This document shows positions 13,658 through 59,371 of a stretch of 64,000 bases of DNA, one piece after another. The position numbers and the translations under genes were made by a program. The notes under the pieces were generated by a model, which was not told where the DNA came from, searched no databases, and was given only the letters and a program-made list of their open reading frames with translations. Source of the stretch: an uncultured virus (IMG/VR IMGVR_UViG_3300027747_004323) (taxonomy: Duplodnaviria > Heunggongvirae > Uroviricota > Caudoviricetes); the IMG/VR virus record IMGVR_UViG_3300027747_004323, one strand, 5' to 3'. Each line of letters opens with the position of its first letter. Within the stretch, counting starts at the first letter, position 1.

Positions 13658-14269
13658 ATGAAGATCACCGAGAGCAAACTCCGAGTCATCGTCAGAGAAG
13701 AGTATCTCAAGAATTCTGAGGCGGCAGGATTCACTCCCAACCTCACGGAGGGCATGAGATGGCACCTGACCGAATCAGTTCCGTTCGATAGACCAGTATA
13801 CCGTGCAGGAACGGAAAAGTACTTCACTTTGATCAGGGAGGCACGCAACCTCTACGGCTCCGGAGACTACACACCGATGAGCGACTTCGAGAGAGACCTG
13901 CTGGAATCTGACCTCGGTGAGTACGACATGTTCGAGGGTGCGATGGTTCCTCTCGACTTTCCGTTCCGCGAAGGTGACCTCACGGAGGCGAAATACAAGG
14001 GCAAGGAAGTCGAACTCGGCAAGCCGAAGCACGGCGAGGGCGGCAAGGCCTACGTCTACGTCAGGGACCCAAAGTCAGGCAACGTGAAGAAGGTGAAGTT
14101 CGGTTCGTCGATGCCCGATGCGATGGGCGACTCAGACGCCGCGAGGAAGAGGCGCAAGTCGTTCGGTGATCGTCACGACTGTGCCAACAAGAAGGACAGG
14201 ACGAAGCCGGGCTATTGGGCATGCAGGGCCACCAAGTTCTTCGGTAGGGACATACCCGGTTGGTGGTGA
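13658..14269 (+). CDS. leader-motif protein with conserved phage C-terminal domain (RRKSFxxRHxC...GYWAC)
   Basis: MKITESKLRVIVREE leader; basic Cys/His domain typical of large phages. Confidence 0.75.
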   Translation: MKITESKLRVIVREEYLKNSEAAGFTPNLTEGMRWHLTESVPFDRPVYRAGTEKYFTLIREARNLYGSGDYTPMSDFERDLLESDLGEYDMFEGAMVPLDFPFREGDLTEAKYKGKEVELGKPKHGEGGKAYVYVRDPKSGNVKKVKFGSSMPDAMGDSDAARKRRKSFGDRHDCANKKDRTKPGYWACRATKFFGRDIPGWW

Positions 14270-14541
14270 AGTTTCCGTTCGACGAAGAGACTCTCGAGAG
14301 CGGTTCGAGACTCCGAACTTTCTCAAGTGACTCTGCGCTAGAAGAACTGGTTTGGCACAGGGATGCCGACGACAGACTTGTGCGAGTCATCAAGTCGCAG
14401 GGCTGGTACATTCAGTTCGAAGATGAGCTGCCGAGAGAGATGCGGCCTGGTGACGTCTTCTTCATTCCGAAGGAGACGTGGCACCGTGTGATCCGCAAGA
14501 GTGACAGCCCACTCGTCGTCGAAATCGAAAGTCAGTCGTAA
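14260..14541 (+). CDS. small cupin-like phage protein
   Basis: ELVWHRD...IPKETWHRVI. Confidence 0.7.
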   Translation: MVVKFPFDEETLESGSRLRTFSSDSALEELVWHRDADDRLVRVIKSQGWYIQFEDELPREMRPGDVFFIPKETWHRVIRKSDSPLVVEIESQS

Positions 14542-15209
14542 TACGACGTCGCCGGTCGGCGCTTCTGCGGAGCGATCTTTCTCGCGCCGTGGTCGAACAT
14601 CCACTGCGCGAGCTCGGGAAGGCCTGCCACGCCCGTTCCCCTGAGGTCAGTCGCCATGATGACGCCTGTGATTCCGCGACCTGCGGGGTCGTAGTTGAAT
14701 GCGATGCTGTCCTTGCGGAGTCGAATGGAGAACGCCTTCACGGAGTTGAGAGACGGCGTGCCGTAGGTGGTCACTCTGCCCAGCATCTTGAGGATCTTCT
14801 CGTCCTTCTTCGTGAGATTCTCTCCACCGTCGACCTGCTTGATCTTCGCGAGAGCGGCCTTATGAGCCCATGCAGTGCCACCGGCACGAGAATCGTACTC
14901 AGGGACGCGGACGAGCTCGCCAGGAGCGAAGGTGGACGTCATGTCTGCGGCCCAGATCCACACTCCCGGACTACCTGGCTTGGGTCCTGCGCCGGGCTCC
15001 CACGACATGTCGTCTGGAAAGTCTGCGAGGTCTCCTGCGTCTTCGATCTCGTCGAAGAAGACTTCTTCACCGCCGTACTCGGGTTCTTCGACCGAGACGT
15101 ACACGTCGCCTTCTTGAGGCATGGCACCAGGGTTTCCCGCTGTGGCTTCGGTTACGCGAGCGACTTCTTCTTTGATGATGCGTCGAAGGTGATCGATGGA
15201 GATTCTCAT
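14532..15209 (-). CDS. leader-motif hypothetical protein
   Basis: MRISIDHLRRIIKEEV; ATAGTTA motif 6 nt upstream. Confidence 0.7.
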   Translation of the reverse strand: MRISIDHLRRIIKEEVARVTEATAGNPGAMPQEGDVYVSVEEPEYGGEEVFFDEIEDAGDLADFPDDMSWEPGAGPKPGSPGVWIWAADMTSTFAPGELVRVPEYDSRAGGTAWAHKAALAKIKQVDGGENLTKKDEKILKMLGRVTTYGTPSLNSVKAFSIRLRKDSIAFNYDPAGRGITGVIMATDLRGTGVAGLPELAQWMFDHGARKIAPQKRRPATSYYD

Positions 15210-15221
15210 GGCGTTTAACTA

Positions 15222-16058
15222 TCACACTCCCCACAGCTTGTCGAAGGTGCCCACGAACTTTTGCCATGTACCGTCCTTCACGATCGACGCGAACTCGAAC
15301 TGGGAGAACCTCGACTTGACGGTGTCCCAGTCCTTGGCGGGAGTCGACGACGTCATGTCTGCGGCCTCGTCGCGAGACCACTCGACGAACTGAATGAGGT
15401 CCATGTTCCTCGTGAAGATCGCCTCGCGGTCACCTTGCAGGAGGTAGTCCTTGAACTCGTCGGTTCCCACGGCCTCCGCGAGCTTGGCGGCCGTCTTGTC
15501 ACCACAGCCAGGAATGCCTGGGATGTTGTCGGTGGCGTCGCCGCGGAGGGCCTTCCACACGACGTAGGGATAGTTCTCGGGTGCCTTGACGAACTCCTTG
15601 CGGACAGGATTGTAGAGACGCATGTTGGGATTCGTCTCGAGCAGTTGGATGAAGTCTGAATCGGAGGACGCCACGACCCAGTCGATGGCCGACGACGACG
15701 AGCGGACGAGGTTTGCGATCGTGTCGTCGGCCTCGTGTCGGGGATGCCGCACGACGGAGACGGGGAAGTGATTGACCAGAAGCTCCTTGATGATGTCGAC
15801 CTGTCGAAAGAATTTCGCCATCTCGGCGGCACGTGGGTCGTCCGCTGCCACCACACGGTTCGCCTTGTACTCGCCCATCAGTTCGTGACGTGCCTGTGGC
15901 CGGCCTTCGAGGGCGACGTAGACGCGTGTCGGCTTGAACTGTTCGACGAGAGCACGAAATCCGCGAAAGAAGTTGAAGACGACGGGATGATCCCCTGCGA
16001 GGAAGCCGCTGCGTGCACGATGTGCTGCGTTCATGAAGTCGAGGGCGAGGATTGTCAT
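15222..16058 (-). CDS. 5'-3' exonuclease / flap endonuclease (Pol I N-terminal type)
   Basis: YKANR, EADD, SSDSDF, GDATDNIPGIPGCGDKTA. Confidence 0.92.
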   Translation of the reverse strand: MTILALDFMNAAHRARSGFLAGDHPVVFNFFRGFRALVEQFKPTRVYVALEGRPQARHELMGEYKANRVVAADDPRAAEMAKFFRQVDIIKELLVNHFPVSVVRHPRHEADDTIANLVRSSSSAIDWVVASSDSDFIQLLETNPNMRLYNPVRKEFVKAPENYPYVVWKALRGDATDNIPGIPGCGDKTAAKLAEAVGTDEFKDYLLQGDREAIFTRNMDLIQFVEWSRDEAADMTSSTPAKDWDTVKSRFSQFEFASIVKDGTWQKFVGTFDKLWGV

Positions 16059-16130
16059 GAGTCTACTATACCACCGATCCGGTTGACTTTGCAAAGTTGA
16101 CGGTCTACTTGTCCTGCGTAGGTCCAGAGA

Positions 16131-17132
16131 TCACAGTGTTTTCGATTGATTCTGGAACCAGACGCGGGCGTGATTCATGCATGCCTTGTACGCCTCTTTG
16201 GCGTCGAGCTTCGAGGCCTCGAGTTCCGCCGAAGTCTCCTTCAGCAGGTCGGAGTTGATCCACTTGAGAAATGCTCCCATGTCGCGCACGTCGTAGAGTG
16301 CACCCGACCCGACAGCAGCGGCATGTGCAGCTCCCTGCTCAAGCCTCGGTGTGGTGACCACGAGGTCCACGAACTCCACGAGAGCCTCCACAGACGTGGC
16401 GCTCACCTGCACAGGCTTCGTGCGTGCCACGGTGTTGTGCTTCTCGCCCTTCGCCTTGAACACGAGGTTCTTGAACGTGGAATACGAGTCGCCGCGCCCC
16501 ACGGGATACAGGACCAAACCCTCTCCCACACCTTCGACGCCGAATTCATCTGCAACCCACGGGTCCCTGTTCTCCACGTCGGACACCCTCACATTGATCT
16601 TGTCGACGACGTCTTGAAGACGTGACCCGGTCGACAGCCAGTCGACGGCATACTCTTCCCCGCCGTTGAACCACGGGATGACGCGGACTTCGGGGATGCC
16701 CTCCACGAGGGCGGTGAGGAACGCAGGATCGAAGCCGATGCCGTCGATCTCAGGTGCTCGCATGCCGAACACCGCGAAAACCTTTCCCGGAATCTTGCTG
16801 ACTGCGACGCCCTTCTGGATCCCGGGACCGCACCACTCCCCGAACACGACGATGGTGAAGTTACGCGCCAGACGAGCGAAGTCGGACTCGTGTCGTGCGA
16901 CCCAGCGGGCGAAACCTGCGTTGTCGTTGTCTGGGGTGATCACAGACGTGCGAGAGAGTGCCGTGACGGTGCCGTCCGGATCGATCCTCACACCTGCGTT
17001 CGTGCCGTGGAGCTTCACTTTCGCACGATACGTCACCGCGGAGGAGTCACCCAGGACGTGGGGAGACTTCTCGAGTTGACGTCTCAGCGAGTGGAAGTTC
17101 TCGATCTCGGTCCAGGAAATGTGTTCCTTCAT
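16131..17132 (-). CDS. RNA ligase (Rnl2 family)
   Basis: KLHGTN, FGEWCGPGIQK, GEGLV, FKAK. Confidence 0.85.
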   Translation of the reverse strand: MKEHISWTEIENFHSLRRQLEKSPHVLGDSSAVTYRAKVKLHGTNAGVRIDPDGTVTALSRTSVITPDNDNAGFARWVARHESDFARLARNFTIVVFGEWCGPGIQKGVAVSKIPGKVFAVFGMRAPEIDGIGFDPAFLTALVEGIPEVRVIPWFNGGEEYAVDWLSTGSRLQDVVDKINVRVSDVENRDPWVADEFGVEGVGEGLVLYPVGRGDSYSTFKNLVFKAKGEKHNTVARTKPVQVSATSVEALVEFVDLVVTTPRLEQGAAHAAAVGSGALYDVRDMGAFLKWINSDLLKETSAELEASKLDAKEAYKACMNHARVWFQNQSKTL

Positions 17133-18963: not shown

Positions 18964-18966
18964 GTC

Positions 18967-19676: not shown

Positions 19677-20789
19677 TCAGAGTGCCTTTATCTTTTGGAT
19701 CACAGCACGATAGTCCTTGATGTACTGCGCTTCTTCGGGTATGCCGGCCTTGAGGACCTTGTCGACGTGATCCTCGAGGCTCTTGATGTAGAACTCCTTG
19801 GAAGCCTTTCGCGAGCCGTCGACGAGCATCTTCTCCGCCTTGGTTTTCTCCTGAGGTGGGAGCTTCTTGATCTCCTCGACCTTCGCCTTCGCGTCGCCTT
19901 TCAACTTGCTTCCTGCGGCCTTCTCGATGTCCTCGATCGTCTTCACCTTCTTGAGGACGTTCTCGGCCTGTGAGAAGACGTCGGTCAGCGTCTTCCTGTA
20001 GACCTTCGTCGCATCGGCCTGCATCTTCTTGACCTGCGGTGCATCGAGGGCCTTCGCGAGGAACTTCTTGCTGGAGAGTATCTTTGCGGGAGTGAACTTC
20101 TTCTTGTCGTCTGGCTCGTCGTCTTCTCTCAGCTGTGACTCTCCCCACATGGAGCGAGGACCGTCCTTCTTCTTGGAGGGCTTGGATCCGCCTCTGCCGT
20201 CGTCGCCCAGTGCCATCCTACCGGCGGCCTCCAGCTTCGACGTGACGGAGTCGTACAGTTCATCGGAAAAACCACCCGTCACTGCGGATAGAAGCTCCTT
20301 GGACACGGCGGCGCTCTTCTTCGTGGCGACCGCACCGAGGACGAGAGCAGGCGACGCCATGAACGCGAGGAGTCCTGCGTCGGGCGACGCCAGAGCTGCG
20401 TCGGTGCGCGCATACACGTCCTTGTACTCACCCTTGATCTTCTCGATGTCTTCCTTTTCCTTGTCGAAGACGTCTGCATAGTTGTAGCCGTATATCGGGA
20501 TCAGCGTGGTGAGTACCGTCTGAAGGCCGACCCAGAGGACGGTCCTCGCCTTACGGGTGATCTCCTTGGTCTTTCCTACTGCCGTCTTGAAGACGTCGAC
20601 GAACGGTCCGATGAAGGCATCGTACATGTCGTTGCCGCTGCCGTAATGTGCTCCGCCCATGCCCATGCCCGAATCGTACGAAGAAAATCCTCCGCCGAAC
20701 ATCGCGGGATTGCCGCCAGCCTCATCCTCAACGAGGAGGGAATTCCTGACGTATTCACGCAGCAGAATCTCGTCTCTTCTATATCGCAT
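19677..20789 (-). CDS. hypothetical protein with LLREYV leader
   Basis: 370 aa; ATATTTA motif upstream. Confidence 0.7.
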   Translation of the reverse strand: MRYRRDEILLREYVRNSLLVEDEAGGNPAMFGGGFSSYDSGMGMGGAHYGSGNDMYDAFIGPFVDVFKTAVGKTKEITRKARTVLWVGLQTVLTTLIPIYGYNYADVFDKEKEDIEKIKGEYKDVYARTDAALASPDAGLLAFMASPALVLGAVATKKSAAVSKELLSAVTGGFSDELYDSVTSKLEAAGRMALGDDGRGGSKPSKKKDGPRSMWGESQLREDDEPDDKKKFTPAKILSSKKFLAKALDAPQVKKMQADATKVYRKTLTDVFSQAENVLKKVKTIEDIEKAAGSKLKGDAKAKVEEIKKLPPQEKTKAEKMLVDGSRKASKEFYIKSLEDHVDKVLKAGIPEEAQYIKDYRAVIQKIKAL

Positions 20790-20828: not shown

Positions 20829-21422
20829 ATGAGAAGCATTGGACTCGTCCCCATGGCAGCGAAGCCGTATCACGCAGGTCACGACGGTCTCGTGAGGATC
20901 GCAGCGAAGGAGAACGATGAGGTACGTCTGTTCGTGTCGCTGCTCGACAGGGTGCGAAAGGGAGAGACTCCCGTATACGGAGTCGACATGAAGAAGGTCT
21001 GGGACCTCTTCATAGAGCCGTCTCTGCCTGGAAACGTCGAGGTCCAGTACGTCAACGTTCCCGTCCAGGAAGTGTATCGATCGATCGAGGAAGCTGAAGG
21101 AGACGAAGACGTCCTGTTCAGGATCTATTCTGACGACGAGGACATCTTGAAGTACAGCGACGCGTCGCTGTCTAAGTCTGCGCCAAAGCTGTTCGCCAAC
21201 GGACAGATCGAAAGACGCGGAGTGGCGAGATCAGAGACGGTTCCCGTCAGCGGAACAGAGATGAGGGGCTACATCGGGTCAGGTGACGTAGAGAAGTTCA
21301 TCGAGTTGCTTCCTCCCGCCGTGAGGAAGAACGGTCAAGAGATCTACGATCTCCTCAGCAGACGCCCGATGGGTGAGAGCCTGCTGAGGAGATATGTCGG
21401 ATTGTGCTTATCAGCGTCTTGA
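20829..21422 (+). CDS. HIGH-superfamily cytidylyl/nucleotidyltransferase-like protein
   Basis: KPYHAGH and SGTEMR motifs; ATATTTA 6 nt before ATG. Confidence 0.8.
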   Translation: MRSIGLVPMAAKPYHAGHDGLVRIAAKENDEVRLFVSLLDRVRKGETPVYGVDMKKVWDLFIEPSLPGNVEVQYVNVPVQEVYRSIEEAEGDEDVLFRIYSDDEDILKYSDASLSKSAPKLFANGQIERRGVARSETVPVSGTEMRGYIGSGDVEKFIELLPPAVRKNGQEIYDLLSRRPMGESLLRRYVGLCLSAS

Positions 21423-22691
21423 CGTCTTCTTTGCAGACAGGGCGTTTGCTACTACACTCTGTACTTTCTTCAGGGTTGTTGCAGCACTTCCTCCTGGTGC
21501 TTTGGCCATGGGACCTGCATGAACTTTGTACTGTATCACCAAATTAGTGCCTTGAAGTGAAACTGCTTCTGGCATGCTGTCTTTCACTGCACTAATGCTC
21601 TTCAGCTCTGGGGGGGTCAGGCTGATTCTTGACGTTGATCCTCCCGTACCAGGTCTAAACATCAGAATAGGCTTGTGGGAAGTGTCACTTGGGATGTTAT
21701 TTTTGGCATCGCGTGCGTAAAGATGACCATTTTCTCCAACGTCAAGCTTGTACAAGTTTCCAGCTTTCTTGAGTGTCATGCCAGCGATGTCAGAAACTAT
21801 GATGAAAGCACATTCGTCAGCAGGATCTCCCTTGGGTCCATAGATGAATACTTCTGCAATCTTTGGGTCGTCAATTTCTGCATACCAGCCAGAGACATAA
21901 GACGTCTCGCCTGCAACTAACATGTCCTTGTATGTCGCTGTGGATTCTTCGATAAACTTCTGAGTGAAGTCAATCAGTTTCTTTTCGTTCTTGTCGCCAG
22001 AACCTGATGCATTCAAATTCTGAAGCAGTCTAGTCACTGCTGAGTAAGTCTGAGGGGGCATGTTGCCTTTTTGTACCTTGTGTGATATGCCCGTGCCTTC
22101 TATTTGGTTTCCAGACGTATCGACCAGAATAAAGTCCGAGTGTGCTGCCTTGTTCTCGTTCTTTATGATTCCGCCGACGCCGGAGAAATTCTTGCCAGCA
22201 ATTTGAACAGTTATCGGCTTTCTACCGCCTTGCGTAGCTTCGTCAAATGAAGCCTGCAAGTTTTGAAGAGCTCCTGCCTCTGCATGCAATTCTTCGCCCT
22301 TAGAGACGAGCCAGCTGTATTTCGCGCCTGGCGTCACACTCATACTGTAGACGTTAGGTGATTTATCAAATTCAGCGTTTCTCTGGGGGCGCTTACCCTT
22401 AGCCAAACTATTGGCTGCACCTATCTCATCAGGTGTAAAGTCTCTGTTCAGCAAATTGATGTTGAGCTCAGAACCATCTGGTGTCAAAACACCCACCAGA
22501 CGTCTGTCTAAGTCATCTGGGTTGACCTTGACTCTCTTTTTTGTCAATGCTGCTGTGATTGCAGTCTTGACAGGGACAGGTGCGTTGGAAAACTTCACAC
22601 CAAAGTAAGGTCGCTCTGGCCGAATAGTGCCTTCTAGCAGTGGCCTAAGACCCAAAGCTAGCTTCAGATACTCTCTCAATAGTTTGCTCAT
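21411..22691 (-). CDS. AT-rich hypothetical protein, possible PD-(D/E)XK nuclease, with LLREYL leader
   Basis: 426 aa; E...HSDFIL...GISHK motif; codon usage differs from the flanking genes. Confidence 0.6.
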   Translation of the reverse strand: MSKLLREYLKLALGLRPLLEGTIRPERPYFGVKFSNAPVPVKTAITAALTKKRVKVNPDDLDRRLVGVLTPDGSELNINLLNRDFTPDEIGAANSLAKGKRPQRNAEFDKSPNVYSMSVTPGAKYSWLVSKGEELHAEAGALQNLQASFDEATQGGRKPITVQIAGKNFSGVGGIIKNENKAAHSDFILVDTSGNQIEGTGISHKVQKGNMPPQTYSAVTRLLQNLNASGSGDKNEKKLIDFTQKFIEESTATYKDMLVAGETSYVSGWYAEIDDPKIAEVFIYGPKGDPADECAFIIVSDIAGMTLKKAGNLYKLDVGENGHLYARDAKNNIPSDTSHKPILMFRPGTGGSTSRISLTPPELKSISAVKDSMPEAVSLQGTNLVIQYKVHAGPMAKAPGGSAATTLKKVQSVVANALSAKKTSRR

Positions 22692-24085: not shown

Positions 24086-24352
24086 CTATTTCTGCTTCTC
24101 GTTGATCTGATTCTTCTTCTTCGCGGACTGAAGTTCCTTGCGGAGGTGGTTGTACACGTTGCGGTAGTGTCCCCTCTTCTCGGAGCCTTGAGGATACTTG
24201 TCGCGCCAATAGGCTGCGTCAGAGCAACGTGCCTCGAGATCGGCCACGTGGTCGTCCGAGCCCCACTCGGATGTGCGATCCCCGCTGAGAAGGGCCTGTT
24301 TCATTTTTCGCTCTATGATGAGCCTGACGTACGTCTCAATCAGCTTTTCCAT
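24086..24352 (-). CDS. hypothetical protein with LIETYV leader
   Basis: 88 aa; SD GGAGG. Confidence 0.65.
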   Translation of the reverse strand: MEKLIETYVRLIIERKMKQALLSGDRTSEWGSDDHVADLEARCSDAAYWRDKYPQGSEKRGHYRNVYNHLRKELQSAKKKNQINEKQK

Positions 24353-26734: not shown

Positions 26735-27607
26735 TTACTCCAGGGGATCGATGACCTTTTGACCCGACTTGCGCGCCTTTGAGAGCGACTTGTCGAGGAA
26801 CTCTCGGAAGCCGTCGAGGCCTGCGACGATGTTCGGGTGGTCCTTCATCAACTGGACGTCCGCGGACGTGAGCTCACCGGACTTGCGAAGAAAGTCGATG
26901 TAGTCGTTCATCGCGGTGAGGGTGAGGATCTCTGCCTCGTCGGAATCCATCGTCATCACGAACTTCGCCTTCTCGAGTGCCCTCTGGACTGCCTGGCGGG
27001 CGCCTGGCACTCCTGCATATCCGAGCTCCTTTGCGATCTCTTCGAATGTCGCTTCCTCGTCGCTTGCCATCGTATAGCCGCGCTTCGTCGACTTGATCGC
27101 GCCTGTGCCCTTGCATGCCTTGCAGTCCTTGCCGTCAGGCATGATTCCTTCGCCCTCGCAGGCCTCACACTCTTGATAACCTGCACGAACGCCAGACCCG
27201 ATGGATCCAGCGAGGCCTGCAGAAGCGAGGTCGTTGTAGGAAGCCTCTCGAAGCATCTTTCTCACAGCGAGACGGATCGTCTCTTCAACCTTCTTGTCCT
27301 TGTTCATCTCTTTGTCCTCTTCTTTCATGTCTTCGACGACGTCTGTGACGGCAGAGTAGAAAGATTCTGCGTCGTCGTCCGAAATGCTATCTATGAGGGT
27401 CGATAAAGCCGAACGAAGTTCCATTCGGTTTTTCGGCCTGAAGTTGGGATTGCCCGGATCTGTCTCTGCAGCAGAGGGATCCACGACAGGCGACACACCT
27501 ACGGGAGCCGTCGATAGGTCTCCGGTCGACTGCCAACCCATGCCCGGCGTCGTGATCATCTCGCGGATGTATTCGCGGACGGCGATGTCGCTGACGACGA
27601 GCTTCAT
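26735..27607 (-). CDS. protein with DnaJ-type CxxCxGxG zinc finger and sigma region 4-like HTH
   Basis: CEACEGEG, CKACKGTG, TFEEIAKELG...ARQAVQRALEK; start MKLVVSDIAVREYIREM. Confidence 0.65.
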   Translation of the reverse strand: MKLVVSDIAVREYIREMITTPGMGWQSTGDLSTAPVGVSPVVDPSAAETDPGNPNFRPKNRMELRSALSTLIDSISDDDAESFYSAVTDVVEDMKEEDKEMNKDKKVEETIRLAVRKMLREASYNDLASAGLAGSIGSGVRAGYQECEACEGEGIMPDGKDCKACKGTGAIKSTKRGYTMASDEEATFEEIAKELGYAGVPGARQAVQRALEKAKFVMTMDSDEAEILTLTAMNDYIDFLRKSGELTSADVQLMKDHPNIVAGLDGFREFLDKSLSKARKSGQKVIDPLE

Positions 27608-29473: not shown

Positions 29474-30048
29474 GCACCGCCTCCGCCGGCTGGGCCTGCG
29501 GCCGCGGCCTTCGGTGCCTGGAACTCCGTCTCGTCTTCCTTCTCAGACTGCGAGACTCCGATCTCGACGCCGTAGGACTCGAGTAGTTCCTCCTTGAACG
29601 TCTCCACTGCAGACTTGTCGTAGTTCTTTGCGAGGTAATTGGACGCCCTGCGGAGGATCGTGTTGCGGATCTCGAGGAGGTTGTCGTAGTTGTCGACGAG
29701 GCGCATCACGTCAGTGACGAAAGATCCGACGTCGATGTCGTCGGAGGAGAGCTTCTCTGGCTCTGCGTCCTCCTTCTCCTCGTCTCCCTTCTCTTCGTCT
29801 TTGTCGTCCTCTTTCTCGTCTTCTTCCTCGTCAGCCTCGACGAGGAATCTCCTCGTCATCATACGAAAGTTGAGGCCTTCGTTCTTCGCATTCTTTGCCT
29901 CTGCCTCGTACTCCGACAGATACTTGTCGATCTGAGCATCGAGAGAGTCCTCACCCTTCTCTTTCTCAGGCTCAGCAGCCTCGACGATTCTTGAGGTGCT
30001 TCCTCTTCGAAGGGATCGAGCCAGCTCCTTCAGCAGGGAAGTCATCAC
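29470..30048 (-). CDS. hypothetical acidic protein
   Basis: 192 aa; LLKEL leader; acidic tract after LVEA. Confidence 0.65.
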   Translation of the reverse strand: MMTSLLKELARSLRRGSTSRIVEAAEPEKEKGEDSLDAQIDKYLSEYEAEAKNAKNEGLNFRMMTRRFLVEADEEEDEKEDDKDEEKGDEEKEDAEPEKLSSDDIDVGSFVTDVMRLVDNYDNLLEIRNTILRRASNYLAKNYDKSAVETFKEELLESYGVEIGVSQSEKEDETEFQAPKAAAAGPAGGGGA

Positions 30049-30782
30049 TTCACCACCTGGGCCATCGCTTCTGCCTTCTTGAAGCGGTCCTCAATGACCG
30101 ACCAGTTGAACTCTCTCATCTGCGAAATGAGGTAGGACTTGGGATCATTGAGATAGTCCTTGTAGTACGCGTGCTCCCACATGTCGACGACGACGAGGGG
30201 ATAGAAGCCCATCGGGACGCTGCCTGCATGGTCGTCTATCATGAAGTTGACGTACTTCTTCAGGAAGAGGTGGTAGCCACAGACTGCCCAACCGCCACGT
30301 GATGCGAGGGCACACGCCATGAAATCCCTCTGCCAGTCGTCGAACGTCCCGAAGTCACGCTGTAGCCTGAGGAAGGCGAGAGAATCCATCACCACCTCGC
30401 TGTGCGGATCGAAGCAGTTTGCGAAGTACAGCTCGTGGAGCCACACGGCGTTGAGGTTCCACGTCTCGTCGAGCTTCAGCGTCCTAAACTGAGAGTGGCG
30501 ATGATTGACGTCCGATCTCTCTGCAGTGTCGAGCTCCGCCGACACCTTGTTGAGGGACTCGACGTAGTTCTTGTACTTCTCGATGTGCGCTGACTTCGTC
30601 TTCTGGGAGACGAATTCCGAGACCTGCTTGAACTGCTTCGGCTCGGCAACGTATGACTCGTTCAAAGACTCGTCGGAGGGTAGCTTCGCAGTCTCCTTGA
30701 CGAGATGTGACTGGATGGTTCTCTTGATGATACCGTCGACGTCGATGCCGGCGAGAGGATGCTTCTTGTCAATCGATTTCAT
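30045..30782 (-). CDS. sod: Fe/Mn superoxide dismutase with N-terminal extension
   Basis: AHIEKY, LHELYF, GWA, DMWEHAYY supply the four metal ligands. Confidence 0.88.
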   Translation of the reverse strand: MKSIDKKHPLAGIDVDGIIKRTIQSHLVKETAKLPSDESLNESYVAEPKQFKQVSEFVSQKTKSAHIEKYKNYVESLNKVSAELDTAERSDVNHRHSQFRTLKLDETWNLNAVWLHELYFANCFDPHSEVVMDSLAFLRLQRDFGTFDDWQRDFMACALASRGGWAVCGYHLFLKKYVNFMIDDHAGSVPMGFYPLVVVDMWEHAYYKDYLNDPKSYLISQMREFNWSVIEDRFKKAEAMAQVVK

Positions 30783-31050
30783 AGTTCTTCTCCAGGTCTT
30801 CTTTGTTCACGAGAAACTGCTTTCCTTCGGGCGTCTTCAGGATCACGTCGCGAGGGCCGACAGACATGACGGTGTAGAGAAACTGCGTTTTCTTGTGGCG
30901 CAGCTTCAGGTCTGTATCGATCAGCGTCTTTTCCTCGCCGTCGACCTTGCCCTTCATGACAGCGTCAACTGTTTCCGAGAGGGCAGCAACCTTTGCGTTC
31001 CATTCCTCTCTCATGATTCGTATGATGTCGGCCTCTTCGAGTTTTTTCAT
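30769..31050 (-). CDS. leader-motif hypothetical protein
   Basis: MKKLEEADIIRIMREEW; ATATTTA upstream. Confidence 0.65.
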   Translation of the reverse strand: MKKLEEADIIRIMREEWNAKVAALSETVDAVMKGKVDGEEKTLIDTDLKLRHKKTQFLYTVMSVGPRDVILKTPEGKQFLVNKEDLEKNYEID

Positions 31051-31052: not shown

Positions 31053-31478
31053 CTAACCTGTAAATATCACGTCGGCGTATCTATTGACGACTACGTCACA
31101 AGATTGGAGGATCTTGATGCCGTTGAGATCCCTGTACTCTTCGTCATAGACGACCTCTGAGATGTCGGCATTCACGATAAGCTTTGCGCACTGCACGCAA
31201 GGTGAGTGCGTGAGGTACATGATCTTCTTGCGATTGAAGTTGTAGTCACACTTGACGAGTGCATTCACTTCAGCATGTATGAAACCACTCTGTCCTGGGT
31301 CCGCCGAATCGGGAACGTTAGGTCCTCCCCTGTAGTTTCCGTTGTATCCCAGTGAGAGGAGACGAGTGTTGTCGTCTGAGACGACGATCGCTCCCACCTT
31401 GAGACGAGGATCGTAGGACCTCTCGGCCACGGTTCGAGCGATCGACATCCAGGATTCGTGCCAGGACGGTCTACGCAT
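31053..31478 (-). CDS. dCMP deaminase
   Basis: KVGA, GYNG, HAEVNA, SPCVQC. Confidence 0.92.
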   Translation of the reverse strand: MRRPSWHESWMSIARTVAERSYDPRLKVGAIVVSDDNTRLLSLGYNGNYRGGPNVPDSADPGQSGFIHAEVNALVKCDYNFNRKKIMYLTHSPCVQCAKLIVNADISEVVYDEEYRDLNGIKILQSCDVVVNRYADVIFTG

Positions 31479-33030: not shown

Positions 33031-33060
33031 ATTATAGGACGCATGCCTTCAAGAGTTCAC
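33031..33060 (-). promoter_or_regulatory. sigma70-like leaderless promoter
   Basis: GTGAAC-N18-TATAAT-N6-ATG. Confidence 0.7.
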
Positions 33061-33827
33061 CTCGTCTTGATCACGATTTCGACACCTTTGGGATCGGTGG
33101 TCAAAAAAGCCTTGAGGCGGTCGCCCTCGTAATCGATCATGACACCCTCATCTTCACTAGTGAGTTCTCCCTTGAGTGAGGACTCGAATCCCAGCTTCTT
33201 CATCACCTCGTCGCAGTACAAGGCAATCTGATCCAGCATGGCGAGCTGTTTCGATGGCACCAGGACCCTGACGTTGACAGAAGTCTTGCTCAGCTCTTCG
33301 ATGGTGACCTTTGATCCCTCAGACTCAAGGTCTTTCTTGATCGCGGAAGCGACGGCCATCTTGTCGGTGGGTGAAGGAGGTGCCGCAGTGACCTCCCCGC
33401 CCTTCATGACGGCGACGACCTTCTTTGCGAGAGCGCCCGCGTCGATCTTCTTCACTCTGCGGCCGGGTTCATAGTTCATCGGATTGAGGAATCCACCTAC
33501 CATGTCAAGGACGGCATCGTGGACGTAGTACTCGACCATGCTGAGCCATTCGTCCCTTCTGTCGACGGGGTCCTTGATGCCCCTCATCTCTGACTCGATG
33601 TTTGACCAAGCGTCCCACATCGCTCCGAAAACCGGACCGCCCTCGTAAGAAGTATCTGAAGCCTCGTCGACGAGGTCTTCCGGGGCCCCTGCGGCCGTGA
33701 GTGCTGCAGAGAACACATTACGAAACTTCATGAAGCTGTCGGGCGGGGAGGCAGCAGCCTTCGCGGCTTCGGCGATTTGCCTCTTGACAGAGGCACGAAT
33801 CATTCGACGGAGTTCGTTGAGAGTCAT
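33057..33827 (-). CDS. leader-motif hypothetical protein
   Basis: MTLNELRRMIRASVKRQIAE; ATACTTA 5 nt upstream. Confidence 0.7.
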   Translation of the reverse strand: MTLNELRRMIRASVKRQIAEAAKAAASPPDSFMKFRNVFSAALTAAGAPEDLVDEASDTSYEGGPVFGAMWDAWSNIESEMRGIKDPVDRRDEWLSMVEYYVHDAVLDMVGGFLNPMNYEPGRRVKKIDAGALAKKVVAVMKGGEVTAAPPSPTDKMAVASAIKKDLESEGSKVTIEELSKTSVNVRVLVPSKQLAMLDQIALYCDEVMKKLGFESSLKGELTSEDEGVMIDYEGDRLKAFLTTDPKGVEIVIKTR

Positions 33828-33842
33828 GCGTCTAAGTATTCT

Positions 33843-38924: not shown

Positions 38925-38963
38925 GAATCTTCTCCGTTATGATTCACTGGGATACGTATCATG

Positions 38964-40839: not shown

Positions 40840-41442
40840 TCAGACCCGGTAGCCCTTGTCCACAGCCAGCGTCTCTGCCTCTATGCCAGCAGCTTCGAGC
40901 TGATCGACGATGGCTTGTGCCTCCTCCTCTGAAGCGAAGGCACGAGACGAATTGTAGCCGGGGTTGGCGCTCGAAGCACCCACGAGCTTGAACTTGATGC
41001 CATTTTTCGCAGCAATTGCATCGAAGGTCTTCTTGGTCTTGTCCCACTCCTTCGCAGAAAGGCCAGAATAAGACGGCGGAAGTATGTGTCCGCTGAGGGC
41101 AACAACCCACTCTCTCGGGGCCGAAGAGAAAGAGTCTATGTATTCGAGGACCGCGGAGGTCATGTTGGCCTCGGTCGCTCCCTGGGAGATCCAGTCCGCC
41201 ATCCTGTCGACGATTGGATCGGTCTCTTTAGGGGGATACATGACGCCTGGGAGACCACGAAGATACGACCAGGCTTCAACGGCAGCGCCGTATGCATTGC
41301 CTGTCTTAAAGGCCTTGACGAACCCTGCGTTGGCCAATACCCTCTTGACGATCTGTGCACTGACGTCGGTTCCTTCGCGGAGGGCGACCTTCTGCACTTC
41401 TTCCTTGATGATTCTGCGAAGCTGACTGACTGTGATCTTCAT
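40840..41442 (-). CDS. leader-motif hypothetical protein
   Basis: MKITVSQLRRIIKEEVQKVALREG. Confidence 0.75.
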   Translation of the reverse strand: MKITVSQLRRIIKEEVQKVALREGTDVSAQIVKRVLANAGFVKAFKTGNAYGAAVEAWSYLRGLPGVMYPPKETDPIVDRMADWISQGATEANMTSAVLEYIDSFSSAPREWVVALSGHILPPSYSGLSAKEWDKTKKTFDAIAAKNGIKFKLVGASSANPGYNSSRAFASEEEAQAIVDQLEAAGIEAETLAVDKGYRV

Positions 41443-41485
41443 GCGTTTTTCCTTTTGATCGAAAGAAATGCAAATAAATATTCCG

Positions 41486-47426: not shown

Positions 47427-48089
47427 TCAGAGCATCGCGAGAGCAGACTGTAGAGTGGTTCTGTCCACCTTTCCAGCAAGCTGGTCGCCGACGTACTCCT
47501 TGAACACCGGATCGCTCACGTCATCGCATCCCAAATCGGGGCAATGTCCTTCGTAGTTGCGAATGATGTAGTCAACAAGCTTGACTGGGTCGGCAGGTAT
47601 AACGTCCATCGACCGTCTACGAGGACCGCCGCCGTCGTGTTCGGCAACGAAGCCCCAATCGCCGCTCTTCCATGCCGCGAACTCCTCTTGGGTGATGCGA
47701 GCGTGGCCCTCTTTCAACGACTTCGCCTTGCGCTTGCGAGACTCGCCCATTGGTGCAGCGGGCATCGAAACCGACGGCTTGTCGTAAGCACGAAGCTTCT
47801 CGTCACCCTCAAGGTAATCCTTGACGTGCTCCAGGTCGGTGTGAGCAGAGGCCACGAGGTCCTGCACCCAAGCAGGAAGCTGGTCTCCCATCTCGATGAG
47901 ACCGCAGATGGTCTCGGCCATGTCCTTGACGTCTGACATGCGAGACTTCACCATGTAACCCTCGTCGTCCATCGGGTGACCGGACTCAAAACCGTGGAGG
48001 AAGCGCTGGGGATCCTTGCCTCCGGCAGGCATCATGGACTCGACTTCTTCCTTGATGATCTTGCGTAGTTGTGTTGCTGTGAGCTTCAT
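47427..48089 (-). CDS. leader-motif hypothetical protein
   Basis: MKLTATQLRKIIKEEV; contains DDEGYM...LPAWVQ...DYL domain. Confidence 0.75.
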   Translation of the reverse strand: MKLTATQLRKIIKEEVESMMPAGGKDPQRFLHGFESGHPMDDEGYMVKSRMSDVKDMAETICGLIEMGDQLPAWVQDLVASAHTDLEHVKDYLEGDEKLRAYDKPSVSMPAAPMGESRKRKAKSLKEGHARITQEEFAAWKSGDWGFVAEHDGGGPRRRSMDVIPADPVKLVDYIIRNYEGHCPDLGCDDVSDPVFKEYVGDQLAGKVDRTTLQSALAML

Positions 48090-48101: not shown

Positions 48102-48560
48102 TTACTTCTTCCTTGTTGCCTTGAAATCCGCAGTCGCCTTGCCTGTGGGTTGGAATTTCTGACCGAAGCCGGCCTTCCACAGCATGCCTGTGGCCGTCTC
48201 GGCGTAGTAGAAGTCGCCGTCCCTGAAGAACTTCACGAGCTTGTTCTTCTTTGCCTCTGCAGGAGTCGTCCTCGTCGCACCGAATGCCTGCTCCGCGGGC
48301 ACCGGTTGGAGCCTCTGACCCAGAGGAGTCGTCGCGACGTACTCATCGCGACGATTCTTGCGTAGCGTCTCGGCAGCTCGGGCTGCGGCCACGACGAGGT
48401 CAAGTTGCTCGTCGTCGATATCATCGAGAGAAGATACACCAAAGAGGCTGAGAAGCGGCGTCTCGTCGACTCTCGCGCCGTATTTGTCCTTGATGACCTC
48501 AGTGATAGAAGTCATTTCTTCTTTGATGATCCTGCGAAGTTGTGTTGCTGTGAGTTTCAT
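48102..48560 (-). CDS. leader-motif hypothetical protein
   Basis: MKLTATQLRRIIKEEMTSITE. Confidence 0.75.
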   Translation of the reverse strand: MKLTATQLRRIIKEEMTSITEVIKDKYGARVDETPLLSLFGVSSLDDIDDEQLDLVVAAARAAETLRKNRRDEYVATTPLGQRLQPVPAEQAFGATRTTPAEAKKNKLVKFFRDGDFYYAETATGMLWKAGFGQKFQPTGKATADFKATRKK

Positions 48561-48562: not shown

Positions 48563-48808
48563 TCACCACCGGCTCCCTCTACGGCCGTAACTTCCGCCTG
48601 AGCTTCCGCCCTCAAAGGGAGTCGCCTCCCCGTCCTCGAGCCACGAGTATTCGGGGCTCTCAGCAGAGTCGAAGTACTCCTCATTGCCCTCGTCGTCCAC
48701 GAGGTATAGCTCAGTGCCGCGCCGCACGATCGACTGTTCGTGCTCGAGCAGCACCTTCTGCAGTTCTTCTTTGATGATACGGCGGAGTTGTGTCGTTGTG
48801 ATCTTCAT
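48563..48808 (-). CDS. leader-motif hypothetical protein
   Basis: MKITTTQLRRIIKEELQKVLLE. Confidence 0.75.
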   Translation of the reverse strand: MKITTTQLRRIIKEELQKVLLEHEQSIVRRGTELYLVDDEGNEEYFDSAESPEYSWLEDGEATPFEGGSSGGSYGRRGSRW

Positions 48809-49359
48809 TGCGGTAGCACCCTTTGCTTCAGTAGATATACGTGTCCTTCGTGCTTGTCCTCGATGCCCTGTAGCATGTTGTCGAGGCCACGCGTCATCGT
48901 GCCGCACTCCTTAAGGAGCTCGGCGAGGTGGGACATCACCTTCAAGAAGTTCATCTCGGCGAGATACGACCGCTTCGCGAGCTCGGTGGGCTGCGGGATG
49001 GTCGACGTCATGCCGTATCCCTGGACGAGTTTCATGAGCTGTGAAGTGACGAGGACGAGGTCCACACACGCGGTGGAGCCGAGACCGATCGACTTCTCGG
49101 CGACTGTGTCGACGTCCTCGACTGTCGCCTCGTGGATGCGCTGAAAGAGGAGGTGATCACCGTAGAAAGGATCACCCTTCGTGATCCAGTGGTGGTTCTG
49201 GTGCACCGCCGCGAGGAACTTGAGGTGGACGAGAGCCACCGAGAGCTGTGCATAGGGCGTGGATCCCCACTGTGCGACCATGTTGTCGGTCATGATGTCG
49301 AGGTTCGGCTCGACGACGATCGCCATCTCGAGAGTCTCTGAAAGCCTTCTCTTTGTCAT
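48805..49359 (-). CDS. Dps/ferritin-like protein
   Basis: HQNHHWITKGDPFYGDHLLF...DTVAEK...HEGHVY. Confidence 0.8.
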   Translation of the reverse strand: MTKRRLSETLEMAIVVEPNLDIMTDNMVAQWGSTPYAQLSVALVHLKFLAAVHQNHHWITKGDPFYGDHLLFQRIHEATVEDVDTVAEKSIGLGSTACVDLVLVTSQLMKLVQGYGMTSTIPQPTELAKRSYLAEMNFLKVMSHLAELLKECGTMTRGLDNMLQGIEDKHEGHVYLLKQRVLPQ

Positions 49360-50507
49360 CACTTCAGCTCCAAGTTAAAGCCAACGAGGTCCACGCCAAG
49401 GGGATGAGGTCCCCACGTGATCCTGTACGGTTCGCCACGCAGCGACTGCTGGTTGTTCCAATGCGACACATAAGCGTCGAGAGCCTTCTCGGCTTTCGCA
49501 TCGAAGCCACCCGGAACGGATGCCTTGACGGGCACGAGAGTCTCGGAGTTTCGGCCCTCGCCGATCCGATACTTCTTGATGCCTGCTGGAACCGTCGACT
49601 TGCGGACGGAGAATATCTTCTCCGCCTTCTCGATGTACTCTGAGGACGAGAGCGACGCCTCGAGGAGGTCTGCGACGGGATTCGCTGGTACTTCGATGAC
49701 GGGCATCACGGCCTCGTCGAGGTGTGCCTCGGACCGAAGCCGGCGGACGATCGACATCAGCGATCCTTCACCGAGGACCTCCTTGTCGCGGTCCTCGATG
49801 CACTTGTATATCGCCTTGAGAAGCTTCTCTCTGTCCACCTTCACGCCTGAAGTGGCGTAGTGCGAGGCGGAGACCCGAGTCGCGAGGATCTCTTCCCACT
49901 GTCCCTCCAGGTTGGTGCCGTATTCCTTGCACAGCTTGTGTGCGAGCCTCTCGTACCAAGTGTCGGGCAGGTCCTTCAGGGGATCGGGAGACTTGACTGC
50001 GTCGCCGAGCGGGCCGTCGCCGTACATGTCGAAGGGCTCGTCCTGGGTCTTCGGCGTCGGAAGTCCTCCTTCTGCGAGGCGCTTCTCACGGGCGATCGAA
50101 CGAAGCTGATCGTCACCGGGATTCATCTTGACGGCCTCCTTCACGAGGGAGAGGGGGAGGCGGCGTGCAGCGGCACATCTCACGGAAGACGCTGCGTCTT
50201 CGAGGAGCCTGGCTGCGTGTCTCTCTGGAAGGAGACGGGCTGCGACCTTGCGGAGGACGACGGACTTGCTCGATGCCGCCTCGATGAGGACGGTGGTCTT
50301 TATCGCGGTGCGGTTGACTCCTCGTCCCGTGGACTCGAGGAGGTCGAGTTGTTCGATGGCGGCCTCTGCGACTTTCTCGCAGTTGCTTGAGACCATCACC
50401 GGAGGCCCAAATACTCTGAAAAGCTCGTCGCGAAGTGCGGTTCTGCTCTTCTCTTCTCTAATTGTGTTCTTCGCTACTCGCTGCAGCTCTTGAAGCTTCA
50501 GATGCAT
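49359..50507 (-). CDS. hypothetical protein with leader-like N-terminus and short HEAT-like repeats
   Basis: 382 aa; MHLKLQELQRVAKNTIREE; ATACTTA and SD upstream. Confidence 0.7.
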   Translation of the reverse strand: MHLKLQELQRVAKNTIREEKSRTALRDELFRVFGPPVMVSSNCEKVAEAAIEQLDLLESTGRGVNRTAIKTTVLIEAASSKSVVLRKVAARLLPERHAARLLEDAASSVRCAAARRLPLSLVKEAVKMNPGDDQLRSIAREKRLAEGGLPTPKTQDEPFDMYGDGPLGDAVKSPDPLKDLPDTWYERLAHKLCKEYGTNLEGQWEEILATRVSASHYATSGVKVDREKLLKAIYKCIEDRDKEVLGEGSLMSIVRRLRSEAHLDEAVMPVIEVPANPVADLLEASLSSSEYIEKAEKIFSVRKSTVPAGIKKYRIGEGRNSETLVPVKASVPGGFDAKAEKALDAYVSHWNNQQSLRGEPYRITWGPHPLGVDLVGFNLELK

Positions 50508-50555
50508 GTTGAATAGACTCCTTTGCGTAAGTATCCGACAAGGAGTAAATCATAA

Positions 50556-50744
50556 TCACTTAGAGGACAATTTCATGTCCTTTGCCCATGCCCTGATCTT
50601 CTTCTTCGCCCAGTTGGGGACATAGACGCTGTCCTCTTCGAAGGCAGGATCGTCCATGAGCTCCATGGTATAGGTCTCGTCAGGCTGTGATCCTCCGAAG
50701 ACCTTCCTCACTGTCTCGCGTAGTTGTCCTATCGTCATCCTCAT
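50556..50744 (-). CDS. small leader-motif protein
   Basis: MRMTIGQLRETVRK; ATACTTA 6 nt upstream. Confidence 0.65.
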   Translation of the reverse strand: MRMTIGQLRETVRKVFGGSQPDETYTMELMDDPAFEEDSVYVPNWAKKKIRAWAKDMKLSSK

Positions 50745-51277
50745 GACTGGTAAGTATCGCTTCCGAAGAAAGCAGTCCAGTCGGGATGCCACGTGTGGTG
50801 AGGATTGTACTCCCAGAAGTGGAGTACGCTAGGATCTGTCGGGTTCTTTCGAAGCTGCATTCCGACCTCCGACAGCGTCCGAGACCCCTTCTTCCAGTTG
50901 CACCGCTTGCACGACGCGACGCAGTTCTTCCAGTTAGTCGGTCCGCCTCTGGATCGCGGCATGACGTGGTCGATCGTGATCGTCTTCTGGTCGAGCTTGA
51001 TGCCGCAGTACTGACACTGCCAGTTGTCACGATTGAACAACACCCACTTCCTGAAGCGAGGCGCGGTGTACTTCCTGTTGACTCTCTCGAGGAGTCGAAG
51101 AGTCGCAGGCATCTCGAACGACCTCGAGGGTGAGGACACCCTCTCGTTCCACAGACTTGGCCTCTCGCTCATCGAGATGACCTCGGCACGTCCCTTGAAG
51201 ATGAGGTTGAGGGCTCTGAAGCCCGACACGAAGTTGAGAGGCGACCAATCTGCGTTGAGGAGGAGTACTCTGTTCAT
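50741..51277 (-). CDS. HNH endonuclease (McrA-like)
   Basis: VLLLNAD, RDNWQCQYCG, TIDHVMPRSRGG, NCVASCKRCN. Confidence 0.88.
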   Translation of the reverse strand: MNRVLLLNADWSPLNFVSGFRALNLIFKGRAEVISMSERPSLWNERVSSPSRSFEMPATLRLLERVNRKYTAPRFRKWVLFNRDNWQCQYCGIKLDQKTITIDHVMPRSRGGPTNWKNCVASCKRCNWKKGSRTLSEVGMQLRKNPTDPSVLHFWEYNPHHTWHPDWTAFFGSDTYQS

Positions 51278-55332: not shown

Positions 55333-56520
55333 TCAGGCAGCGATCTTAATCGCGTCCAGATCGTCAAGTGCTGCAAGAATCTTGGCGATGGATCCCTCGT
55401 CTGCCTCGGGTCCAACTGCCTTCTTGACGTCTTCTAGCGCTGCGCCGTATTTTTTCTTGGCTTCTTCGGCAGCTTCTTTGGCCTTTTCGTCGCTCTTGCC
55501 TATGTTCTTGAGGTCTACGCCTGCATCTTTAGCTGCCTTCTCGATAGCCTCGGGCTTCTTCTCGCCGATCTTCGCAATGACTCCTTCGAGTCCTATGTCG
55601 CCGATCTGCTTCTCGAGCTCATCCACATTTATCTTCAAGGCTTTGGCAAGGTTTTCTCTGAAGCCGTCGTACATCGCTGTCTTCTGCTGAAGACCCTTGG
55701 CAAGGTCTTCTGCCTCTTCTTTCCAATTGTGATCGTCTTCTGTCAACAAGCCTCTTCTGCCGCCGAAGCCTGCAAGCTGCTGCCACCTCTCAATGATTCT
55801 TTTCCCTCTTTCTTGAGAGGCACCGACTTCTTTCGCCGCCTTGAGCAAGTCTTTGGCGTTAGGTCTGAAGATGCCTTCCGCCACAAGATGTCCAGACTTC
55901 ATCAGCGCTTGGATGACTTGCGAAGTCAACTTGACATCCGTCCCTGTTTGCTTTGAGATGGATTTAGCAAGAACTTCTGTGGCTTTTTCGGGAGTGACCT
56001 TCTTTTCTTCAGCATCAGCAAGTGCTTTGTCGGGATCTATGTTCGCTGCCTGCGCAGCGCTTCTGACAAGAGCAGGAGTCGCCTGTTCTGGCTTGCCAGG
56101 ATCGATTGCTGTGCCTGGCTTTGGCCCGCCAGATTCACCCTTGTCTCCGCCCTCGCCGCCTGTGGGCTTCGCAGAAGCGACTGCGGCGGGATCCACGCCG
56201 GCACCATCCAGGACTCCTTTGAGGAATTCATTCACGACTCCTTCGTCAACGCCTGCTTTTGACGCAACGTCCTTGAGATCCTTCACCGCCTTGGTGATGT
56301 TGTCCTTGGCAGTGGCGAAGAGCTTCTGGTTCGCTTTGTCCTTGAAGAGCTTACCAAGATCAGCACCTACTTCCATGCCGCCTCCGAGAAATGCCTTGAC
56401 CTTGTCAAGGAATCCCAGCTCGAGGAGCATGTCGTACTGCCTGTTGCTGATATTGCCTTCAAGAAGTTGCGTGTAAAGCTTGTACTTCAGTGCAGCGTTA
56501 TTCATTGCGTGTTTCCTCAT
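55333..56520 (-). CDS. hypothetical Ala/Lys-rich protein, probable virion component
   Basis: LLEG, ERWQQLAG and LLTE motifs; ATACTTA 6 nt upstream. Confidence 0.7.
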   Translation of the reverse strand: MRKHAMNNAALKYKLYTQLLEGNISNRQYDMLLELGFLDKVKAFLGGGMEVGADLGKLFKDKANQKLFATAKDNITKAVKDLKDVASKAGVDEGVVNEFLKGVLDGAGVDPAAVASAKPTGGEGGDKGESGGPKPGTAIDPGKPEQATPALVRSAAQAANIDPDKALADAEEKKVTPEKATEVLAKSISKQTGTDVKLTSQVIQALMKSGHLVAEGIFRPNAKDLLKAAKEVGASQERGKRIIERWQQLAGFGGRRGLLTEDDHNWKEEAEDLAKGLQQKTAMYDGFRENLAKALKINVDELEKQIGDIGLEGVIAKIGEKKPEAIEKAAKDAGVDLKNIGKSDEKAKEAAEEAKKKYGAALEDVKKAVGPEADEGSIAKILAALDDLDAIKIAA

Positions 56521-56585: not shown

Positions 56586-56605
56586 CGGTATCGTATCTGT
56601 GATTT

Positions 56606-57403: not shown

Positions 57404-57448
57404 TGGTAAACTCCTGTGTGTCGATACTACACTGTTGACGATTTTCGG

Positions 57449-58725: not shown

Positions 58726-58731
58726 GTTCCG

Positions 58732-58760
58732 ATCTTACACCGGAATGCGCCAAAGTTCAA
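58732..58760 (-). promoter_or_regulatory. sigma70-like leaderless promoter of thyX
   Basis: TTGAAC-N17-TAAGAT-N6-ATG. Confidence 0.65.
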
Positions 58761-58781
58761 ACGTGAGGTGTCTTCTCAGTC

Positions 58782-59063
58782 TCAGAGAACGGCGTCGATC
58801 GCATGCATCATGATGCTGAAAATTGCCTCTGAGCGGACGTCGCCTCGTTCTGCCTTCTCAGCGTATGCCTGCATGAAGGCTTCTTCGAGACCCGGAAGCG
58901 AAAATACCTTGGGAGCATCCGTCGTCGTCGTGTAGAGGTCCCAGTAGTGTTTCGCCTCACGTGAGATTCGAGGATCAACGGGAGGTGCCACGTCGGCTTC
59001 GCCTAGAGCCTTCTGAGCTTCTTCTCTGATTATCCTGCGGAGTTGTGTCGTAGTGATCTTCAT
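58782..59063 (-). CDS. leader-motif hypothetical protein
   Basis: MKITTTQLRRIIREEAQKALGE. Confidence 0.75.
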   Translation of the reverse strand: MKITTTQLRRIIREEAQKALGEADVAPPVDPRISREAKHYWDLYTTTTDAPKVFSLPGLEEAFMQAYAEKAERGDVRSEAIFSIMMHAIDAVL

Positions 59064-59077
59064 GACGCTTCTCCTAA

Positions 59078-59371
59078 CTATGTGCTCCTGATGAATTGTA
59101 GCATCTTGTCCTCGAGAACTTTCTTGATGTCTTCTTCAATCTCTTCGAGGACTTCGTTCGCTGCAGCGAGCATCTCTCTCTGACGTACCGAATCCGATGC
59201 TGTTATCTGTATGTGACGTTTGAGGTGACGCTTGAGTCCCTCGGCTGCGTCGGATGCCACCTGCGACAGAGCGAAGTCAGGTATGCCACGAGCATAGTCT
59301 TCCGCAAGGACAGTTCGAATTTCTTCGACGACCAAACGCCTCAGTCCTGCCCTCGCGTCTTTCAAGGTCAC
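59078..59371 (-). CDS. leader-motif hypothetical protein
   Basis: LRRLVVEEIRTVLAE. Confidence 0.65.
   Translation of the reverse strand: MTLKDARAGLRRLVVEEIRTVLAEDYARGIPDFALSQVASDAAEGLKRHLKRHIQITASDSVRQREMLAAANEVLEEIEEDIKKVLEDKMLQFIRST

Follow-up and report, generated by a model that had tools for sequence, protein, structure and literature searches.

A window of 64,000 nucleotides from an uncultured virus (IMG/VR IMGVR_UViG_3300027747_004323), which is the first 64,000 bases of a virus contig of 126,032 bases (G000), encodes several otherwise unrelated proteins headed by the same leader of ~15 residues, with the consensus MK(I/L)TxxQLRRII(K/R)EE. From sequence comparison, the leader is probably a removable capsid address, which would be clipped off by a gp21-type prohead protease after a hydrophobic-x-Glu site. 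The sequence-only reading had proposed an address label of this kind, modelled on the internal proteins of phage T4; removal of such a label by a gp21-type protease fits the present results best and found independent support, but the leader is not a homologue of the T4 capsid-targeting sequence (CTS) by sequence.

A score matrix was built from the seven strict leaders of the window, with the Met column switched off, and was run in six frames with a hit defined as 20 bits or more. This gave 15 strict hits on the contig (the 7 seeds and 8 outside the window) vs 0 in 20 shuffles; 14 of them begin at Met and one starts a residue after Met, and ~10 weaker copies are present besides. All N-termini quoted beforehand were confirmed, their 12 coordinates being start codons (13658 on the plus strand, the other 11 on the minus strand). 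The genome-wide motif scan that had been proposed, including related phages, recovered the leader at gene starts: in 79 related loci (1.06 Mb) an ATG lies within -8 to +2 residues for 144/145 hits. The weak sites 50744, 59371, 31050 and 50507 carry a clear leader in orthologues from two related genomes (scores 31, 31, 17 and 16), and the weak site 33827, without homologue in the related loci, ranks 2nd of 38,598 non-leader positions. Leader copies per whole record number 18 in G001, 22 in G002, 6 in G003, 44 in G004, 11 each in G005 and G006, 27 in LR756508, 2 in immuto, and 0 in both Mel-JY01 and T4. In immuto (vB_FspM_immuto_2-6A, MW353175) the two leader genes lie near 102,880 and 113,188, with a cargo domain at 101,528. 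A full profile search identified 6,590 protein clusters (50% identity) at an expect value (E) of <=0.001, almost none bearing a family name. No Pfam, PHROG or PDB match covers the leader, tblastn of the 26-residue leader against annotated phages gave no match, a two-copy query found LR756508 only (E=1), and the ESM Atlas search gave leads below 0.9 only.

The head genes expected of T4-type capsid targeting, gp23, gp20 and a gp21-type protease, are all present on the contig. From the 151 genes called, of which 150 were put through family scans, the T4-type major capsid protein (gp23) was located at 110093-111952 and a Peptidase_S77 prohead protease, which aligns with T4 gp21 across conserved blocks, at 115886-116497. 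The gp20 portal, terminase, two sheaths, tube and a family C DNA polymerase are also encoded. A 705-residue acidic gene before the capsid gene has no family match and is presumably the scaffold, judging by position and composition. The nearest annotated capsid proteins are those of uncultured LR756508 (484 kb), Flavobacterium phage immuto and Microcystis phage Mel-JY01, and G001 is a close relative with a complete 298-kb genome.

Passages of PMC9958956 describe how gp23 of T4 loses 65 residues to gp21, which also takes short peptides off IPI-III and Alt; according to part of PMC5694885, Alt is cut at both ends, after ITE-6 and LTE-619. In the capsid protein of the contig, VLKE-S aligns with FLTE65-A of T4 gp23, the cut position in T4, and in the scaffold 18/28 conserved Glu have a conserved hydrophobic residue two positions earlier. 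After the leader, hydrophobic-x-Glu was found in 171/236 de-duplicated sequences (mean 74 and maximum 97 over 2,000 shuffles), with the site at Glu21/22 in 134 of the 236; the next window of residues holds a site in 45/236. The hydrophobic position (P3) is Leu/Ile/Val in 159/171 sites, under a rule scoring hydrophobic P3 only. On the contig itself, the site that had been predicted to follow the leader is found after 11/15 strict leaders (5/7 in the window) vs 40/136 other genes (p=0.001).

A natural control is provided by the second module of the gene at 13658, which exists as a free-standing protein starting Met-Ala in HTVC026P, Kolga and CRP-901; no S77 (gp21-type) protease was found in these three. 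The same module follows LTE, LDE, MME or LEE in G000, immuto, Melnitz and HTVC008M, all of which have an S77 protease, and cutting the 13658 protein at its predicted site would yield an AKY start, as in two free forms. Among 120 module homologues taken, 26 of which were unanchored by the patterns used, hydrophobic-x-Glu precedes the module in 94/94 anchored cases, homologues within one family not being independent.

The leader is exchanged for other tags and is also found away from the N-terminus. The protein at 103395-104357 has the leader at its N-end and the last motif of the scaffold at its C-end, where the motif scores 24.2 vs a maximum of 19.0 in 30 shuffled proteomes. By the patterns used, its 120 homologues have both tags in 74 cases, the leader only in 9, the tail only in 13 and neither in 24. 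In 73/74 anchored homologues (46/120 unanchored) the predicted site immediately precedes the conserved domain, under N-terminal tags that comprise the leader (50), a scaffold-tail-like motif (5), a short KLxxLLE tag (2) and ENWRxF (2), the remaining 15 being other or truncated starts; here too the members of the family are not independent. The C-ends (n=120) are the scaffold tail in 72, the leader in 7, other in 16 and unanchored in 25. For this protein, matches at E 0.12-0.8 over one motif give a ParB/SerK-like function as a lead only; its structure model was poor (predicted local distance difference test, pLDDT, 37) and was set aside. Genes whose N-terminus copies the C-terminal motif of the scaffold were also seen in cultured immuto (L085 6675-7139, L118).

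Three membrane-protein-like hits were excluded ahead of the polyprotein counts. Of the 260 database hits, 176 bear one or more internal leaders besides the N-terminal one, a count that gives no frequency, since both database searches favour multi-copy proteins. The site lies within six residues before 99/187 internal leaders; random windows hold it in 7% of cases, and separate genes matched for ribosome-binding site, used as control, in 11/91; 46/187 internal leaders have no Met nearby, with the motif kept. Modules are shuffled, 43/65 multi-member families occurring with two or more partners, and in G004 (145-162 kb, L134) ~30 short leader genes form a tandem array in 15 kb, some of them fused in frame.

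The contig has 40 copies of the motif ATAnTTA, most of them just ahead of a start on the coding strand. It precedes 9/15 strict and 9/17 weak leader genes and 6/19 structural genes (scaffold, tube, both sheaths, neck and fibre), and only 3/39 replication or metabolism genes and 3/61 other genes. With gap-free runs considered, 13/15 strict leader genes have the motif at their own start or no more than four genes away vs 8/39 replication or metabolism genes (p=1e-5). That most leader genes follow ATAnTTA, as had been stated, was borne out: it lies within 40 nt of 8/12 quoted starts, and the other four (48808, 48560, 48089 and 59371) are downstream of a copy in gap-free gene runs. The spacing to ATG is 5-6 nt in 10/15 leader genes and 21-33 nt in 5/6 structural genes. 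ATAnTTA may be a late promoter, and the leader-gene transcripts may be leaderless. The looser ATAnnTA is enriched at leader genes in G001 (12/17 vs 46/264) and G002 (16/23 vs 49/254); a relaxed match before 48808 is inside coding sequence and was discounted as a promoter. A run of DUF444, SpoVR and PrkA kinase genes is also found behind ATAnTTA, at 4367-8794 (+) in the window.

In the mechanism suggested by these results, the leader genes would be expressed late, and the leader, a predicted amphipathic helix, would attach to the prohead core while the head is being assembled. The gp21-type protease would cut at hydrophobic-x-Glu, mostly at residue 21-22, and the mature body would be freed and retained inside the head, with cutting at both ends or between modules wherever tags are so placed. 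Ejection into the host and effector roles of the cargo, also proposed in the sequence-only reading, are the least supported part. A wider proposal, which we put forward only tentatively, is that of a combinatorial loading platform in a widespread clade of large T4-type phages, with interchangeable tags (leader, scaffold-tail mimic and short CTS-like tags, at either end or between modules), one protease and dozens of injected proteins per genome.

Several observations weigh against a removable capsid address. Two relatives are nearly leader-free (0 copies in Mel-JY01, 2 in immuto), and 4/15 strict leaders have no downstream site by the rule used, those within the window being 13658 and 48089. 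The T4 genome has 0 matches to the leader profile, and the core of IPII/IPIII scores 0.0 as against 17-27 for strict leaders (rank 8-9 of 67 T4 N-termini), with only the closing Glu in register. A comparison of leader and scaffold by hhalign gave no match (probability 0.1-0.3), and a scaffold block that is invariant in 47/47 scaffolds resembles the leader by eye. This block, the capsid N-terminus and the protease C-terminus were tried as leader copies and found no support: the capsid N-terminus, the protease C-terminus and the block have matrix ranks of 67, ~220 and lower of 38,598, and rank 13, 27 and 37 of 28,780 windows, among ordinary helices, the block falling below helicase and polymerase helices. 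Three top database hits are apparently bacterial membrane proteins that repeat a similar acidic helix, and ATAnnTA is hardly enriched in LR756508 (4/26 vs 18/145). To these are added the non-independence of homologues within one family and the search bias towards multi-copy proteins given above.

With the same address and cut, the cargo might instead be scaffold-like core fillers or assembly helpers, which would be digested and leave the head with no injection; we regard this as unlikely. Three leader genes do lie in the head cluster, with either terminase and portal or protease and scaffold on the two sides, and the leader is retained in 36/36, 73/73 and 71/71 of their orthologues; these conserved genes could be core proteins rather than variable effectors. 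The 103395-104357 family ends in the scaffold's own tail motif, and many leader bodies are short, with a hydrophobicity below that of enzymes (0.29 vs 0.34). However, the bodies show no excess of internal sites (observed/expected 1.06-1.11, like the 1.09 of replication proteins, vs 1.30 in the scaffold), and in the module family described above the cut would restore the start that the domain has where it stands alone. Folded or enzyme-like bodies are present too: the model of the protein at 107678-108340 is of alpha/beta type (pLDDT 66), and one Atlas cluster, 25% of which is so assigned, gives acetyltransferase as a lead for it, one cargo body has an invariant DGHHRW motif, and one relative passes the Pfam cut-off for PAP2. 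This last scan used 81 cargo representatives, reduced to 80 by removing one false positive (immuto terminase); the cut-off was passed by 3/80 (PAP2, HTH_8 and DUF2608), and marginally by 3/143. A precomputed domain was available for 1/120 relatives, none of the 15 strict leader proteins passed a Pfam cut-off, and 0/26 proteins were over cut-off with PADLOC and NCBIfam, libraries unable to reveal an anti-defence role. Outside the head cluster the leader genes are variable, with 83 body families in 300 leader proteins, 64 of them singletons. The downstream bodies are near neutral and, as had been claimed from the sequence alone, unrelated, with no pair matching at BLAST E<=0.01 among 33 tested.

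It is distinctly improbable that the leader is a generic helical module for oligomerisation or localisation in the infected cell, the downstream Glu being merely part of the helix. The membrane-protein-like hits speak for it: in P0124, P0135 and P0141 a long linker holds 6-9 copies of an acidic helix that resembles the leader, and therefore the pattern can arise elsewhere. The sole usable model (107678-108340) shows one continuous helix over residues 5-29, and the missing hhalign match to the scaffold points the same way. Such a helix would not explain a site that stays with domain boundaries though the distance varies and the tags are unrelated, precedes internal leaders, and is absent in phages without a gp21-type protease; moreover, no replication or metabolism enzyme of the contig bears the leader.

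As a pro-peptide through which the head protease activates or destroys late cytoplasmic proteins (timing switch or decoy), the leader would need no packaging, and this would account equally well for the site statistics and the late-type upstream motif. We consider it very improbable: according to a section of PMC9958956, T4 gp21 becomes active once the prohead is complete, and neither the conservation of 15 residues nor the swapping with the scaffold tail motif would be explained.

At the DNA level, codon identity between leaders is modestly above expectation (472 vs 423 of 865) and greatest among neighbouring genes, which points to local duplication. The ~30 nt upstream of the adjacent leader genes at 109593 and 109893, including ATAnTTA, are near-identical, which suggests duplication of a cassette. 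Leader genes have likely spread as promoter-plus-leader cassettes that were duplicated and recombined. At invariant leader positions, Leu is encoded by at least five codons and Arg by several across genomes of 39-56% GC (guanine plus cytosine), and the constraint on the leader consequently acts on the protein. That the peptide is incidental to a recombining expression cassette (promoter and favourable first codons) is scarcely credible, for all the codon identity and the G004 array, as this accounts for the spread and not for the conservation, and both the codon diversity and the internal (without nearby Met) and C-terminal copies stand against it.

The removable capsid address has its closest known parallel in the T4 CTS of IPI-III, likewise a short N-terminal peptide common to otherwise unrelated proteins (as described in portions of PMC12373910 and PMC3012670), in a T4-type head with an S77 protease and a hydrophobic-x-Glu ending. 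The T4 CTS comprises ~10 residues on 3 proteins, whereas the leader has ~15 + 6-7 residues and 15-44 copies per genome; unlike the CTS, it is also internal and C-terminal, occurs on conserved head-operon genes, and is interchangeable with other tags including the scaffold-tail motif. Likeness to the T4 core proteins gp22, gp67 and gp68 lies in the leader genes of the head operon, the scaffold-tail motif on cargo and the conserved hydrophobic-x-Glu of the scaffold. These T4 proteins are digested to peptides, whereas most leader bodies lack an excess of internal sites, and hhalign detected no homology between leader and scaffold, a further difference. In SPN3US (phiKZ-like, protease gp245), head proteins lose N-terminal propeptides after Glu and two paralogues have an identical N-terminus, according to parts of PMC10052503 and PMC5694885. 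Its motif is A-X-E and most propeptides exceed 100 residues (passages of PMC10052503), as opposed to the Leu/Ile/Val that prevail at P3 after the leader and to the T4-type head module of the contig, the protease of which is a Peptidase_S77 and not of phiKZ type. Moraphages (PMC12619734) were also considered, and no link to the contig emerged. Six literal forms of the motif were found in no paper of the literature searched, and broader literature searches turned up no account of it, subscription papers and supplements being outside its coverage. From the sequences, the principle would be that of T4, with the leader a much enlarged, modular variant of capsid targeting that is apparently unpublished.

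Within the window, the strict leader gene 13658..14269 (+; 203 aa) has a two-module body whose second module (phrog_7595) is preceded by LTE, and a putative late promoter element, ATAnTTA at 13646..13652 (+), lies 5 nt before its ATG. The strict gene 14532..15209 (-; 225 aa) has a VTE site at residue 21, no homologue in the related loci, and ATAnTTA at 15216..15222 (-), 6 nt before the ATG. In the weak gene 30769..31050 (-; 93 aa), the leader is clearer in the G001 orthologue and ATAnTTA is at 31061..31067 (-), 10 nt before the ATG; the weak, shortened leader of 33057..33827 (-; 256 aa) has an IAE site, with ATAnTTA at 33833..33839 (-), 5 nt before the ATG. The strict gene 40840..41442 (-; 200 aa) has an LRE site at residue 23 and ATAnTTA at 41475..41481 (-), 32 nt before the ATG. 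A gap-free run (50507, a ferritin-like gene, 48808, 48560 and 48089) is opened by the weak gene 49359..50507 (-; 382 aa), with ATAnTTA at 50528..50534 (-), 20 nt before the ATG, and continues with the strict genes 48563..48808 (-; 81 aa; LLE at residue 22), 48102..48560 (-; 152 aa; ITE at residue 21) and 47427..48089 (-; 220 aa; no site in residues 17-30). The leaders of the last two have 10/13 codons in common, and the G001 orthologue of the 48089 gene is fused in frame behind another leader protein. The ferritin/Dps-like gene amid this run, at 48805-49362 (-), has a stop that overlaps the 48808 start. The weak gene 50556..50744 (-; 62 aa) has a clear leader in its G001 orthologue and ATAnTTA at 50751..50757 (-), 6 nt before the ATG. 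The strict gene 58782..59063 (-; 93 aa) has an LGE site at residue 22 and ATAnTTA at 59075..59081 (-), 11 nt before the ATG, and the weak gene 59078..59371 (-; 97 aa) an LAE site, with a clear leader in the G002 orthologue. The gene 55333..56520 (-) has no leader, lies behind ATAnTTA and contains an internal copy of the scaffold C-terminal motif at residue 243, with a score (15.9) within the range of shuffled maxima; in the orthologue from G001 this copy is clearer.

A looser N-terminal pattern, LL(R/K)EY(V/I), is kept in orthologues and possibly marks another class of tag; it was seen in the genes 12686-13102, 19677-20789, 21411-22691, 24086-24352 and 26735-27607 (-). Next to the weak leader genes lies an Fe/Mn superoxide dismutase-like gene at 30045-30782 (-), whose N-terminal extension ends in LNES. 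The family C DNA polymerase is in two frames flanking an endonuclease gene, at 35750-40730 (-), and its first part ends in a weak Hint match, below cut-off. Outside the window, the contig encodes an actin-family (Volactin) gene at 64954-65958 (L001 2957-3958; E 9e-64), tRNA-Ala, -Met and -Ile together with a transfer-messenger RNA at 99.9-100.6 kb (L003 1913-2616), and an intein with an HNH domain inside the portal gene (L004 5362-8514).

In T4, the internal proteins Ip1-3 share only a leader of their own and each blocks a GmrSD nuclease, and all three anti-restriction factors were found via that leader, according to passages of PMC12373910; part of PMC9958956 treats the way in which proteins are placed in the T4 scaffolding core as unresolved. 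A different leader marking 6,590 clusters would offer a searchable label for packaged phage proteins, and the naturally swapped tags a set for locating the core binding site. The leader is also a possible tool for capsid loading, and a cultured phage with two copies, immuto, makes the reading testable. If the combinatorial platform is real, it would single out protein clusters by the thousand, all without a name, as candidates for injected effectors.

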